This document shows positions 3,001 through 9,000 of a stretch of DNA of 64,000 bases, one piece after another; the first letter of the stretch is position 1; every line of letters begins with the position of its first letter. Position numbers: made by a program. This stretch comes from a virus (Duplodnaviria; Heunggongvirae; Uroviricota; Caudoviricetes). Location of the stretch: the IMG/VR virus record IMGVR_UViG_646311923_000012; one strand, written 5' to 3'.

Positions 3001-6000
3001 CCACCCACGGAAGCGCCACCGACGGCCTGCCATCCAGCAGGGGGACCACATACGGGTACACCTGCCCGCCGGCAAGATGTGCCAGATGAGGATACAAATC
3101 CGCCTCCGTCATCGTCTCAGTACCTCATCAATGGCCCGGTTCATCCGCGCAATCGCCACCTGTGCCGCCTGTTCACTGCGCACATCAAATGCCGGGCGCA
3201 CAAACGGGTGCGGTGGCATATTCACGGTCCCCATTTCCACAAACCGCCAGTAGAAAGCGTTGCGCGGGTTATCCGCCTTCATGGTGTTATCGCTGTTACC
3301 GGTGTCCGGATTAACACCCCGGATATGCACACCGGATTCCATCCCGCCATCGCGGGAGCGCCGGGAAAGGACCACCACATTGCGGCGCAGTTTTCCCCTG
3401 CGTACCGGTGCCCGTGACACCACTTCTTCTTTCAGCACATTCGCACCCGCACGGGTTGCCTCACGCAGCACCCGGTTATTTTCTGCACCACTCAGAAGCT
3501 GCAAATCGCGGCTGATGTCCTCCAGCCCCGAAAAATCCAGCAGGGTTTCGATCATTTTTCACCTCCCAGCCGACAGAGAATTTCCAGACGTCCGCCGGTC
3601 GCATCCGGCACGGGCAGCCCGACAACGTTCAGGATCCGGTCACGCCAGGGACCACTCAGCACATGAAGTCGTGACGCTGCCGTGATTTCCCGACCGGACT
3701 GACCGCGCACCCAGATGCGGATTTCCGCCTGCGCCATTTCCGCACCGGACTGCATCCGCTCCCGGCTGCTCCTGCCACGGATATCCGCATGAATTATCCC
3801 GCATGACACCCATTCTTCCGTCATTTCTCCGGCAGCATTACGGGTTAACACCGGGTTCAGAACACTTATCATCTGTGTCAGACGACCTGCAGATATTGCC
3901 ATTCCTCCCTCCTCATAACACCGTCGGACAACGCAAATCGTAAATCAGCACGGACACAGAAAACGGCAGTTCCCCCTGCACGAGGTCTTCCCGCTCAGCA
4001 AGATCCGGATTCCGGTACAGCATCCCGGTCAGTCGCATGGCAGCCCCCTTCATCCGGGTTAATGCCTCGCCCGGGATCAGTTCACCGTCCTCACGAATCA
4101 CTTTATCCCGGCTGCCCTGAATGTAGGCCAGCAGCACGGCGGTAGCCTGACGAACCTTGTCCATCAGCATGTCATCATCCGCGTCATGGTCAACACGCAG
4201 ATGTGCCTTGATCTCTTCCAGTGTCAGTAATGCCGTCATTTTCCGCCTCCTGCATCCCGTCCACGTTTTGCAGCCAGGGTCCAGCCTGATGAATGAGCTT
4301 CTCCGGGTTTATCACCGGTCATACTGTTGCAGTGCCACAGCGAGCCCCCCCACGTCACCGTATCGCCGGGGTGGTAGGTTTCACCGGCTCTGAACACACC
4401 GCGGTAGAGCATCACCGGCAGGGAAAATGTTTTTTCCGTACACTGGCCACTGCTCTGCCGGATCACCACAGAGAACAACCGCTCATCCGTCATGCTGACG
4501 TCGATATCCGCCACCCCGTCAACCAGGCATTCCCATCCCCGCATCCCGTGCGTTTTTTCATACGCCCGCCAGAGTCCACCCAGGTGTGTGGCATACGTGC
4601 CCCGGGGAAAGGATTTTTGATCGTCAATAGCGGGGAGCACTTCCAGTGCCGTGGCATCACGCCCGTCCTGCGGAGCCGGAAGGGCATTCACCGCCTCCAG
4701 AACCGCCTGCTTCAGTACTTCCGGATCGTAATCACGACCATCACGCGGAGCAGGGATATGGCTTACGGCCTCTTTCACCATCTGCTCAAGCATCGGACGC
4801 ACATCATCGGGGGTGATACTTTTGCCGTCCGCCGGTACCGGAATATTCGCAACCGCATCATTCACCGCCTGCTTCAGTACTTCCGGATCATAATCACGAC
4901 CGTCACGCGGAGCAGGGATATGGCTTACAGCCTCTTTCACCATCTGCTCAAGCATCGGACGCACATCATCGGGGGTGATACTTTTGCCGTCCGCCGGTAC
5001 CGGAATATTCGCAACCGCATCATTCACCGCCTGCTTCAGTACTTCCGGATCATAATCACGACCGTCACGCGGAGCAGGGATATGGCTTACAGCCTCTTTC
5101 ACCATCTGCTCAAGCATCGGACGCACATCATCGGGGGTGATACTTTTGCCGTCCGCCGGTACCGGAATATTCGCAACCGCATCATTCACCGCCTGCTGCA
5201 GTACATCCGGATCATAATCACGACCATCACGCGGTACCGGAATGGTCCCCACAGCGTCATCCACCATCGCCTGCAGAACCGGATGTACCTCATCCACCGT
5301 CACATGCTTCTGTAATACCGCCGACAGGGAAGCCAGTTTCTCTTCAAACGCTTGTGCCTGCGCGGCCATCTTCCCCTCAAATGTGCGCTGTAAATCCGCC
5401 AGCACCGTGGAGAATTCTTCGCCCAGTGCACGAATAATGGACAGTTCCCGTTCCGTCATTTTCTCAGTATCCCCCTGAACATCGCTTTCACTGCATCATG
5501 CTCTGTTTCACTGATTGCCTTATTACCGTCAGATGCGCCGTCAGGCAGTTGTGCTGAAACTGTTTTCCCGGCCGACGCGAACGGGTCCTCACGGGCATCA
5601 CGACGGGACAGCGCCTCCAGACTGTAGTTCTGCTGCTGAAGATACAGTGCATCACCGCCGGCAAGGGGCGGCAGGTTCTCACGTTTACGGGCCTCATTGG
5701 GCGTGAGAAGCGTATTTTTCACCGATTCACCCAGTGTTTTCATGCGCCGTTCGCTGTCCATTCTCAGCAGCGTGGTGACGTCAAACTCCGTGCTCTCGTT
5801 TTCCCCCGTTTCCAGCGCCTCATCCAGTAACAGCTCAATGGACTCAATCAGCGTCTGCAGACACTGGGAATAATACTGCTGCTCCAGCGCCTCCACGTTG
5901 TCACTGGAAGGCGGGTGGCCAACGCCAATCTTGTAGGCCGGGACACGGAACACCGAACAGACAATTTCAGCGGTCATCTTCAGTTGTTCCACCGTCTGCG

Positions 6001-9000
6001 CATCCACAGGTGAAAACGTCGTGGGGTTGTATTTTGCCCCGTTGCTCAGAATGGCCGTTTTCCCCGCATTTTCGCCTGTATACCCGCTGTCCCAGTTGCT
6101 CTTCAGTTTTTTCGCATTTTCTTCCGTAATACTGCCGGGGATCTCAATCACCCCGGACGGCCTGCCGCCATTTCTGAAAAAAGACGTCGAATTTTCCTGA
6201 ATATGATGCCCCTGCGTGGCCGCCAGCCCGGCGGCATACACCGGCGGCAATCCTATAAGCGGATGAAAAAAACAGTTAAACCGGTCGTGGATCACTTCCC
6301 GGGCAGGCACCGTCACCGCCTCCGTGATCCCGCAGTTCCGGTCCGGCGTGATGCGGTAGAACACCTCGCCGTCATCCGCCACCAGAGGTTCAACCCGGCT
6401 CCAGTCCAGAATACGCAGTTCTTTGATCTGCCCCCGGGCATTACGGATTTTCAGCACCACCGTATTGCCATGACGCAGTTTGGCGTTCAGCCACAGTTCA
6501 AAAAACTGGATGCGGTTCTGCTGGGCGTTGGGACGACGACAGAGGCGGGCAATATCCCCCCGGCGCGTTTCCCTGCGTATCCCATGCGCATCCGTCTGCA
6601 TAAGACGCAGCCGCATTTTGGCGATATCCTGGGATATCAGCGAAATACATGCAAACACCGCATGAAAGGAGAGGACGGCTTCAGGATCGGCTTTCACGCC
6701 CTGCTGCCAGGCGCCGGAAAAGGGCTCAGCCACCGCCTGAAACAGGCTGGTCCAGCCCGCCTCTCTTACGTCACGTCCTGATTTCTGGTTTTTTCGGGTT
6801 CGCCGTAAAAGGTTCCACATTCGCCATGCTCCGCATCACGTTTCTTTTTCTGACCTGCCGGACGTCGCACCGTGATGTACTCCGCCTTTCCCAGGCGAAC
6901 CAGCACCTCCGCACACGGCTGTGCCACATCACGGATATCCCCGGCCCGGGCATCATGCGTGCCCTGCAGATATCGGATCTTTGCCATAACCTGTTACGGG
7001 AGGCGCACGCCTCCCGTCCTCCTTATCAGACTCAGCCGCCGGACGCACTGCCGTAGTTCACTCCGGTGATCACCGCCACCGCCGCAGTACGGCGACGACG
7101 CCAGTTGATCCAGCGCTCCGCACGGATGGCCACGCTGCCTGTCTGGAACATGGAAACCAGCTCCACCGGGGACGGCGTGGTACTGTCGCCGGTCGGCTCA
7201 GACTGCATTTCCAGTGATGCCTCGCGGGACATATCCACTGCCACGCCGCCGTCATCCGCCAGATAAATATCCGGGGCATTCACCAGCACCAGCTGGTCAC
7301 CCACGTACTGGGAGACAATCACCGGCAGCCCCTGGAAGGAGCCACCCAGCAGGGTCATGTCCGGGTATTCCTTCTGACCCAGCGCATTTTTACGCATGGA
7401 CAGTGCCAGGGCATTGGTGCTGGACATCAGCCAGACCGCACCGGTGGGCTGCAGGTTTGCTGCCACAAACTGTCCAAACGCAGCCTCTGCATCCGCATCC
7501 GGGTTACCGGTTGATGCCGTGCCCTTCACATCATGGGTGATGGACGCCGGGGAGACATCTGCCACTGCGGCTTTTTTCGGGTCCACAAAGTCTGTATCCA
7601 GACGCGCCACCACCGCTTCCGCCAGCGCATTACGGACCAGTGCATCAGCAGCCGGACTGGAAAAACGGATCAATTCTTCCGTCAGTACCGCAATGGCCGA
7701 CACCTTCGCATGACTGAAGGTGATGGATTCAAAATCAAACTTCGTCAGGGGTTTTGCCTTACCCTCACCCACCCAGCCGGCAGCACCGCCGGACACCTGG
7801 GCGTGCACACGGATATTGAATGGCACCTGACGAAGTGCAGGGATCCCGCCCTGACCAAATCGCCCGATAATGGTCTGCGGACGCAGGTAATCAATAAAGT
7901 CCTGTGCGTATTCCTGATATTCAGACAGGCTGCCTGCTCACTGCGGATCCGTGGTGGTCCCCGCGCCCACTGCCGATTTCAGGACATGATGCAGACGACT
8001 GTCATCCGGATACTGACGACGGGCCACTTCCAGGGCTTCAGATCGGACGCCTTTAGCCGCAGCCAGCGATTTGGCAAAGCGGGCGAAGCCAATCCCCTTA
8101 TCCAGTTTCTGCTCCACACGGATCACCGGCGCAGAAGCCACCGCGGCCACATTCCCGTTACCGGCCTGTTTCACCGGCTGCGCCGTGGCGGCCTTACCGG
8201 CTTCCAGTTCACGCAGGCGCTTCAGGTGCGCATCCACCTGACGGATTTCCGCTGCGGTGTTGTCGTAATGCTCTTCCTCCTCCACATCCAGCGTGCGCCC
8301 TTCCTCTGCGGCTTTGGTCATGACCTCCTCAAGGGAGGCTGCCAGCGCTGCACGCTTGTTTTCAAAACTTTTAATCTGTTCGCCAATATTCATTATGGTC
8401 TTTTCCTTATGAAAAACGGTTGTTGACTGTGCCGCAGCGCCGGCAGAAGATGCGATTTTCACCACCGGTTTCCGGTTGCCGGACGCGGCAGAAAACGGGC
8501 GGTCGTAAGATTTAATGGTCCGGATGGTGCATTCCGCATTCGCGGGCACGGTGACGGCAGACACCTCCATCAGTTCCCAGCGCAGAAAATGCAGTCCGCC
8601 TCCGTCCAGAAAGGTGTATTCATGGGGACGGAAGCCCACGGACAGCCCCCTGACCAGCCCGGTCTTAATGGCAGCCCAGGCCTCATCCAGCCGGGCTGCC
8701 ATCTGGGAGGGCATCCCCGGCTCCGGCTTCACCAGCATTGCCGTGATTTCCAGCCCTTCCCTGACCCGACGCACCGTACACTGGCCTACAGGGCGGGAAT
8801 GGTCATGCTGCCAGAGAAACGGGATCGTACTGCCAAACTCAGCCCCCTCCGGCTCCAGGATGTCACCATCCCGATCCGGAGAAGGCGTTGACGCAATCCC
8901 GGTGATCACCCGTTCATCCTCACTGAAGGATTTCACCGTCAGCAGGGAACAGGCCCGTTTAAGAGTCACATCAGCCTCCTGAAAATAAAAAAACCGCCGC

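Follow-up and report, generated by a model that had tools for sequence, protein, structure and literature searches.

The locus considered here raises the question of whether a prophage head-assembly module with an irregular-looking gene order, in which a repeat-bearing protein of 407 amino acids (aa) is encoded between the portal and the head-tail connector, is a peculiarity of one element or the regular configuration of its phage lineage, and, beyond that, of what such a protein might do next to a portal. The module lies in a stretch of 64,000 nucleotides (nt) of a caudoviral record from IMG/VR (IMGVR_UViG_646311923_000012), the whole of which is here termed the window, and the repeat-bearing protein is termed X. 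An earlier reading made from the sequence alone had placed the genes in the order terS, terL, protease-capsid, portal, repeat protein and connector; a map of the open reading frames (ORFs) of the window, combined with Pfam, PHROG and NCBIfam scans of its proteins, bears this out, with every head-module ORF on the minus strand and at the same coordinates as in that reading. Its portal assignment likewise stands, the protein scoring 272 bits against a cut-off of 39.1 with PF04860 (profile positions 2-321 of 321 covered) and 352.4 bits against a cut-off of 112 with TIGR01537, which places it in the HK97 family. The answer developed below is that the window in all probability holds the head-assembly module that is normal for a very large lineage of long-tailed temperate phages whose proteins are of HK97 type, represented in Escherichia coli by lambdoid prophages of the BP-4795, 2851 and 1717 type, and that X is a conserved core gene of this lineage, normally a separate ORF; these two statements are held with high confidence jointly with three others, on the portal-X fusion, on its ancestral alternative and on the repeats of X. 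To the whole of the favored explanation, in which this normal module includes an X tethered to the C-terminus of the portal and likely lying on its inner face, a probability of about 0.5 may be given.

The regularity of the order can be gauged from its distribution. A profile of the C-terminal region of X, scanned over one genome per bacterial species, yielded 80 loci from Enterobacterales, Pseudomonas, Burkholderiales, Rhizobiales, Sphingomonadales, Rhodobacterales and a few metagenome-assembled genomes, the neighbors in which were labeled by iterative hidden Markov model (HMM) searches with the window proteins. In all those loci that span the module, across alpha-, beta- and gammaproteobacteria, portal, X and the gp6-like adaptor Ad1 stand in that sequence, within a shared order of terS, terL, protease and capsid (fused or adjacent), portal, X, Ad1, Hc1, gp10-like protein, tail terminator and major tail protein; in the window, too, the tail terminator gene comes after the gp10-like gene. 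Since the order is identical in every spanning locus, it is the normal one for the lineage and not a rearrangement. Thus, the sequence-only reading was right that the order is unlike that of HK97, and the order differs from that of lambda as well (a lambda-type prophage elsewhere in the window has terL, portal and capsid in that sequence), but the view of the order as a peculiarity does not survive the synteny survey, which finds the repeat protein in standard position in this phage group. Nor is that protein an extra, as had been supposed, being a conserved core gene already present in databases as the C-terminal half of an 859-aa "portal protein" (phrog_2271; phage 2851 gp59). With HK97 (gp1 to gp10) the lineage shares the TIGR01537 portal, the S78 prohead protease, the HK97-fold capsid and the gp6-, gp7- and gp10-like connectors, whereas it differs in the order (terL, protease-capsid, portal in the window; terL, portal, protease, capsid in HK97), in having protease and capsid in one polypeptide and in the additional conserved gene X after the portal.

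Within E. coli, phages BP-4795 (ORF56-61), 1717 and 2851 (Marienburgvirus, Pankowvirus) and the Sakai prophages Sp6, Sp9, Sp10 and Sp12 have the same gene order as the window and are 92-98% identical to it in DNA over 3900-9000. A 5.1-kb stretch of the window is 100% identical to several public chromosomes of Shiga toxin-producing E. coli (STEC) and is matched in 1,255 of 5,426 complete E. coli genomes, at 8,328 places in total and a median of four per genome, as well as in 94 deposited phage genomes, mostly of Stx1a-, Stx2c- and Stx2a-converting phages together with BP-4795, 2851, 1717 and YYZ-2008. That Sp6, Sp9, Sp10 and Sp12 have a slightly different organization of head-formation genes was reported earlier (Asadulghani et al. 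2009, PMC2669165). The feature is therefore real yet ordinary, in a region already sequenced and in public databases: for the window it amounts to an ordinary prophage head module with a dead capsid gene, and thousands of prophage lineages, among them those of Stx1- and Stx2c-converting phages, have X as a core gene.

The junction between portal and X holds a detail that the sequence-only reading missed, namely that the portal stop and the X start overlap in an ATGA, 11 nt downstream of a run of five guanines (G5). In phage 2851 the two proteins are the product of a single fused gene of 859 aa (gp59), and the sole difference at the junction is a run of six guanines (G6) where the window has five; in Stx1_EH1995 the run is G5 and the genes are split. 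In keeping with the fused form, phrog_2271 is an 859-position "portal" profile of which the window portal and X cover successive parts. A survey of 82 E. coli-type loci found G5 in 52 and G6 in 30, with the run never interrupted and only these two lengths present. The local haplotypes with G5 number at least 16, all of which keep the ATGA overlap and the Shine-Dalgarno (SD) element, as compared with 4 that have G6, and haplotypes identical over +/-300 to 500 nt bear G5 in some copies and G6 in others. Among complete genomes, perfect matches to the main haplotype number 366 for G5 and 752 for G6, E2863 being an example of a genome with both. On a comparison of these alleles, one extra G very probably fuses portal and X into an 859-aa protein, with both alleles common.

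Outside this group the separate state prevails. All but one (L105) of the distant loci that hold portal and X keep them as separate genes, the portal stop codon overlaps the X start codon in about 90% of 73 distant loci, and a purine-rich, SD-like motif occupies the equivalent position, as AGAGGA in Kluyvera, Enterobacter and Citrobacter and as AGGGGG in E. coli and one Pantoea. Given the AGAGGA of the sister genera, the G run can be seen as an SD element combined with Arg-Gly codons, its homopolymer form being a codon-choice accident of the E. coli lineage. Split records include BP-4795 (454+461 aa), Lys8385Vzw (454+245), FSL SP-016 (451+347) and the prophage genome record 1717 (454+407). Of these, BP-4795 was reportedly isolated as virions. 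The published descriptions record the induction of Lys8385Vzw and the isolation of FSL SP-016 as a phage. The distribution of the two states makes it highly probable that the two-gene G5 state is ancestral and that the window holds that state.

X itself belongs to a large family, comprising the C-terminal half of phrog_2271 (E=3.5e-264 for X, with the invariant columns of the C-terminal domain kept), phrog_1289 and, in precomputed tables, Pfam PF28083; NCBIfam has no model for it. An HMM of alignment A2 scores 310 bits on the C-terminal domain of X, and an exhaustive HMMER search recovered 5,557 clusters at 50% identity with E<=1e-3, 647 of them at E<=1e-30. An HMM search found no paralogue of the same domain elsewhere in the window. 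The best 150 family representatives are mostly of stand-alone size (214-600 aa). The family architecture is that of an N-terminal helix, a variable number of repeats and a C-terminal domain, about 140 aa long, in which G, D, W and C positions are invariant and which as a whole is nearly so from E. coli to Rhizobium and Sphingomonas; some homologues have GxDGxDG or true G-X-Y collagen-like runs (e.g., P0253, P0171 and P0245). The X of the window conforms to this pattern in its N-terminal helix, its helix/PxPxDG repeats of about 27 aa and its position between Ad1 and the portal gene that it overlaps.

The 407-aa protein had been described from sequence as a tandem-repeat protein with a distinct C-terminal domain, probably varying in copy number, and each part of this description holds. 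Tandem Repeats Finder reports an array at 4702-5234 with a 162-bp period and 3.3 copies (98% matches, no indels, score 1024), far beyond chance; the two inner units do not differ from each other (100% identity), and the first unit has 90% identity with them. In the protein, the array forms part of eight half-repeats of 27 aa (aa 58-273), in which a helix leads into a PxPxDG turn and which pair into 54-aa units. Lengths of X among relatives are 245, 353, 407, 461, 515 and 569 aa (e.g., 245 in Lys8385Vzw, 407 in the window and 461 in BP-4795), i.e., steps of 54 aa, and occur on both G5 and G6 backgrounds except for the three rarest. There is thus little doubt, as far as lengths can tell, that the stalk grows and shrinks by 162-bp (54-aa) units, with unequal recombination between the near-identical units as the likely cause. 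An AlphaFold2 model built with a 48-sequence alignment predicts a confident helix at aa 3-52 (predicted local distance difference test, pLDDT, 83-93), repeat helices of low confidence and a confident, conserved all-beta C-terminal domain, which modeled alone has a mean pLDDT of 88. Foldseek comparison of the model with BFVD retrieves, at E values of 1e-8 to 1e-4, phage proteins whose annotations read collagen triple-helix repeat, CBM5/12, ChiC_BD or tail fibre. The fibre-like character suspected from sequence is therefore upheld as a long helix, a repeat stalk and a domain resembling the distal domain of phage fibres.

Where X works may be approached through its natural fusions. Phage 2851 and at least 752 complete genomes have the G6 fusion, and an independent portal-X fusion of 1,237-1,243 aa is found in Pantoea, intact in two members that are 68.7% identical. 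Between these two, identity is 88.8% over the portal core and 78.9% over the X C-terminal domain, as against 44.7% over the linker and 34.4% over the X N-terminal helix, the median for this helix being 72% in 30 split pairs whose portals have diverged to a similar degree; no SD element precedes the internal ATG of the Pantoea fusion. To our knowledge, the portal C-terminus faces the head interior in every solved portal, so that X would most likely lie on the inner face of the portal vertex, and a fused X would be inside the head unless the fusion were processed. The explanation preferred here is that X acts while attached to the portal C-terminus. There the N-terminal helix of X would dock or oligomerize, with the covalent link replacing docking in fused lineages, and the conserved, putatively CBM5/12-like domain would be kept at a distance from the portal by the repeat stalk. 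Within the head, at the portal vertex, X might be an axial core or an ejected glycan- or peptidoglycan-binding protein, which the prohead protease may free in the fused forms. The relaxed N-terminal helix of the Pantoea pair would fit a docking helix no longer needed once the link is covalent, and stable in-frame fusions to the portal C-terminus would argue against a plain outer decoration protein. An inner-face, portal-tethered location is ranked first among the placements weighed, at odds that are close to even.

Known systems offer partial parallels. SPP1 gp7 and Mu gpF are minor head proteins, internal and portal-bound, that are encoded right after the portal gene. X is like them in being encoded directly downstream of the portal and, putatively, in its inner-side association with it, but it shares no family with them, its helix, repeats and CBM-like beta domain forming a wholly different architecture; Phage_Mu_F, the MuF domain, is not among the Pfam matches at E<=0.01 for the window proteins. 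The fused portal-X alleles recall the P22 portal with its C-terminal barrel in having a long, largely helical C-terminal extension; however, there is no homology, and X is normally separate, ends in a globular beta domain and is highly variable in length.

The strongest competitor to the inner-face tether, ranked second and judged unlikely, though not negligible, is that X is an external fibre of the head or of the head-tail junction (a collar or neck whisker or a head fibre), which would trimerize via an N-terminal coiled coil and bind a surface glycan with its CBM5/12-like tip, an accessory function whose loss or alteration through fusion to the portal would be tolerated. The build of helix, variable stalk and distal beta domain, the collagen-like runs of some homologues, a gene placed between portal and adaptor in a manner matching the physical order along the virion axis, and the rapid copy-number change typical of exposed fibres would all be explained on such a placement, as would the restriction of truncated X ORFs to G6 backgrounds. 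Yet the Pantoea fusion, intact, with its C-terminal domain conserved and with no internal SD, suggests an X that is functional while attached to a terminus that faces the head interior in solved portals; the G6 fusion, moreover, is very common; and the near-invariance of the C-terminal domain from E. coli to Rhizobium and Sphingomonas is unlike that of host-specific receptor-binding tips. Comparison of this domain with those of collagen-repeat phage fibres bearing CBM5/12-like distal domains, and with the chitin-binding domains of chitinases (2d49, ChiB), also brings out differences from such fibres, in that the PF02839 (CBM5/12) score of the window X, 18.3 bits, is under the 26.2-bit cut-off (homologue P0202 reaches 31.1 bits), inspection of its sequence finds no G-X-Y run, and its gene belongs to the head module and can fuse to the portal.

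Against the inner-face tether itself several considerations have to be set. X has the build and the C-terminal fold of external phage fibres, and we know of no precedent for a domain of carbohydrate-binding type inside a capsid. The inward orientation of the portal C-terminus comes from other portals rather than from the present one, and the relaxed N-terminal helix was seen in a single fused pair. X is intact in 54 of 54 G5 loci as against 25 of 30 G6 loci (Fisher p=0.0046, for loci that are related and not independent), an excess of broken ORFs on G6 backgrounds that fits a lowered value of X upon fusion and weakens any claim that the fused and split forms are equivalent; the relatedness of the G5 and G6 loci also means that their counts do not amount to independent events. 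The literature yielded no functional, proteomic, structural or mutant study of X, the FSL SP-016 paper having no virion proteomics for it, and no solved structure in the PDB contains it, the sequence matching only designed helical repeats (E>=0.007) and the full model finding nothing by Foldseek at E<=0.001.

With these points in the balance, the portal-tethered X might tentatively be generalized, as a model with somewhat better prospects than the external fibre, to a widespread class of fibre on the inner face of the portal vertex of HK97-type temperate phages, made of a docking helix, a length-variable stalk and a conserved head of glycan-binding type. Such a fibre could be the axial core of a (reportedly prolate) head or a protein ejected ahead of the DNA that binds cell-wall glycan, and G5/G6 could be a standing polymorphism that sets covalent versus non-covalent attachment. 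Whether X is inside or outside the head matters in that it would reveal either a new internal portal appendage or a new neck or head fibre, and either role could affect the spread of Stx phages.

The G run could alternatively be a programmed switch, whether by a -1 ribosomal slip on G GGG G that yields both the short portal and portal-X from one allele or by phase variation of the tract giving two kinds of virion within a lysogen population, and this is considered very improbable. It is true that a -1 slip of tRNA-Gly on G5 would give exactly the fused protein of phage 2851, that the rare codons AGG and ATA flank the run, that the run is uninterrupted in the 82 loci though neighboring codons vary, and that both alleles are found on otherwise identical haplotypes and can share a genome (E2863). 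However, the canonical X XXY YYZ heptamer is absent; no downstream RNA structure accompanies the run, the 121 nt spanning it folding like shuffled sequence (z = -0.30); tracts of 5-6 G are short for phase variation; and only two run lengths were observed. The sister genera, furthermore, write the same Arg/Lys-Gly dipeptide as AGA GGA, with no homopolymer, so that the conserved feature is a purine-rich SD and coding motif rather than slipperiness. A programmed frameshift is therefore rejected for its lack of a downstream structure and of a homopolymer conserved outside E. coli and Pantoea.

RefSeq labels 4236-6820 a frameshifted "phage portal protein", as the G6-fused gene of phage 2851 differs from the window copy at the junction only by one G. 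The corresponding account, in which the true gene is a single 859-aa portal and the window copy a frameshifted pseudogene with the 407-aa ORF as its stranded C-terminal half, can draw on that label, on the 859-position phrog_2271 profile, on the fused gene of phage 2851, on the greater number of perfect main-haplotype matches for G6 than for G5 and on the truly broken capsid gene next door, but is scarcely credible and is rejected on synteny (L105 alone is fused among distant loci with both genes, the others having a separate, coupled X), on the mostly stand-alone form of the best 150 family representatives, on haplotype spread (G5 haplotypes far outnumbering G6 ones, each with overlap and SD retained), on the split infectious phages (BP-4795, Lys8385Vzw and FSL SP-016) and on the intactness of X in every G5 locus, which indicates that X is under selection as an ORF of its own. 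The G5 state thus looks functional as well as ancestral, and the RefSeq pseudogene call points the wrong way.

The flagging of an ancestral split state as a pseudogene is, then, a probable annotation error, and counts of "defective" portal genes in prophages of enterohemorrhagic E. coli (EHEC) may for this reason be too high; the portals of Sakai Sp6, Sp9 and Sp12 have been scored as defective (PMC2669165). A further problem of naming is that X homologues go under "phage portal protein", "phage gp6-like head-tail connector protein" and, in some sources, "Carbohydrate binding domain". The first two names are now found on stand-alone homologues throughout Proteobacteria; those so called in NCBI and UniRef (P0295, P0298, P0302, P0273 and others, from Klebsiella, Cronobacter, Enterobacter, Pseudomonas and other genera) have neither a portal nor a connector domain, so that the names appear to have been carried over from fused or neighboring genes.

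The protease-capsid gene is, in contrast to the portal, broken. Its frame is interrupted by an in-frame TGA, which the sequence-only reading had missed, leaving a 343-aa N-terminal piece with Peptidase_S78 on aa 48-152 and a 264-aa piece with Phage_capsid, which match positions 7-345 and 385-626 of the 626-position phrog_617. The single-ORF fusion typical of phrog_617 is thus lacking here, both halves being in frame with the TGA between them, and RefSeq flags the gene with "internal stop"; phage 2851 and BP-4795 have the intact form of 645 aa. Of 71 relatives, 69 read TGG at this codon, TGA being confined to the window and the identical prophage of strain 2011C-4251 (L003), which rules out a conserved read-through codon. 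Judged by its frame, the gene is a member of the lineage by descent that is broken in the present copy, and the change from TGG to TGA, with the modules of BP-4795, 1717, 2851 and Sakai for comparison, is private to the prophage lineage of the window. A nonsense mutation in its only capsid gene means that this copy of the module cannot build heads alone, though near-identical modules elsewhere in such genomes could be a source of complementation for the capsid.

The window matches the strain 2011C-4251 prophage exactly across the head genes, but there is an 8-nt offset in the major tail gene (~1985-2840) and the two are unlike in the flanks outside the prophage, by which the prophage can be recognized as a mosaic and the window as derived from a different strain. 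The fusion of protease and capsid itself varies within the lineage: they are fused in Enterobacterales and most Rhizobiales members and are separate adjacent genes in members from Burkholderiales and Sphingomonadales (L100-L119, L129, L135 and others).

Table 1. Features of the head module and of the second prophage in the window, with the basis of each assignment.
Feature	Position	Strand	Basis or remark
terS, terminase small subunit	10691-11254	-	PF03592 E=1.5e-8; phrog_641 E=2.6e-68
terL, terminase large subunit	9033-10694	-	TerL_ATPase and TerL_nuclease; phrog_9, phrog_7622
Prohead protease, coiled-coil linker and HK97-fold major capsid protein; fusion gene, here a pseudogene	7032-8969	-	Peptidase_S78, Phage_capsid, phrog_617
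In-frame TGA (Trp to stop) splitting the protease-capsid gene	7938-7940	-	same frame on either side
Small conserved ORF in the capsid-portal interval, 73 aa	6766-6987	-	hypothetical at equivalent place in RefSeq, BP-4795 ORF57, Lys8385Vzw_04
HK97-family portal, 454 aa	5456-6820	-	PF04860 E=8.7e-81; TIGR01537 E=2.5e-105; phrog_2271 positions 1-451 of 859
G5 run; portal codons AGG GGG and SD-like element of X	5471-5475	-	alignment with phage 2851 and Stx1_EH1995
ATGA; portal stop/X start overlap (translational coupling)	5456-5459	-	sequence
X, portal-partner protein, 407 aa	4236-5459	-	phrog_2271 positions 455-859; phrog_1289
X N-terminal long alpha-helix, aa 3-52	5304-5453	-	AlphaFold2
X stalk, aa 58-273, eight 27-aa half-repeats	4641-5288	-	core is the 162-bp tandem array 4702-5234
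X C-terminal domain, aa 262-407; all-beta, conserved, putative CBM5/12-like fold	4239-4676	-	structure model
gp6-like head-tail adaptor/connector (Ad1); start overlaps X stop	3913-4239	-	PF05135; phrog_40
Head closure protein Hc1	3552-3902	-	PF05521; phrog_25
HK97 gp10-like neck or tail-completion protein	3109-3555	-	PF04883; phrog_5
gpA terminase	59060-61045	-	second prophage
Lambda-family portal	57281-58873	-	second prophage
gpE capsid	54316-55344	-	second prophage
Tape measure, 859 aa	48399-50978	-	second prophage; length match with fused portal coincidental
gpJ	41720-45196	-	second prophage

Of the remaining features of the module, the 73-aa ORF overlaps the portal start by 55 nt and matches no family in Pfam or NCBIfam; the hypothetical ORF at this place in FSL SP-016 is shorter, at 168 nt. 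The second prophage (~41000-61500, minus strand) has a lambda-type late region in canonical order, and its 859-aa ORF, considered as a second portal-X, was ruled out as a lambda-type tape measure. A 645-aa ORF on the minus strand (15935-17872) equals the intact capsid fusion in length without being related to it; it combines DUF1737, a SASA esterase and DUF6645, and was on these grounds ruled out as a second protease-capsid gene. We take it to resemble the NanS-p type esterase that Stx-type phages encode downstream of the Q/stx position. Between the two prophages, on the plus strand, a 250-aa ORF (38526-39278) has four proline-rich, EspF-type repeats of 47 aa (PF04806 E=2.4e-110), which are encoded by a second tandem array (38781-39257; 141-bp unit, 3.4 copies, 97% matches); the protein resembles the type III effector TccP/EspFU.

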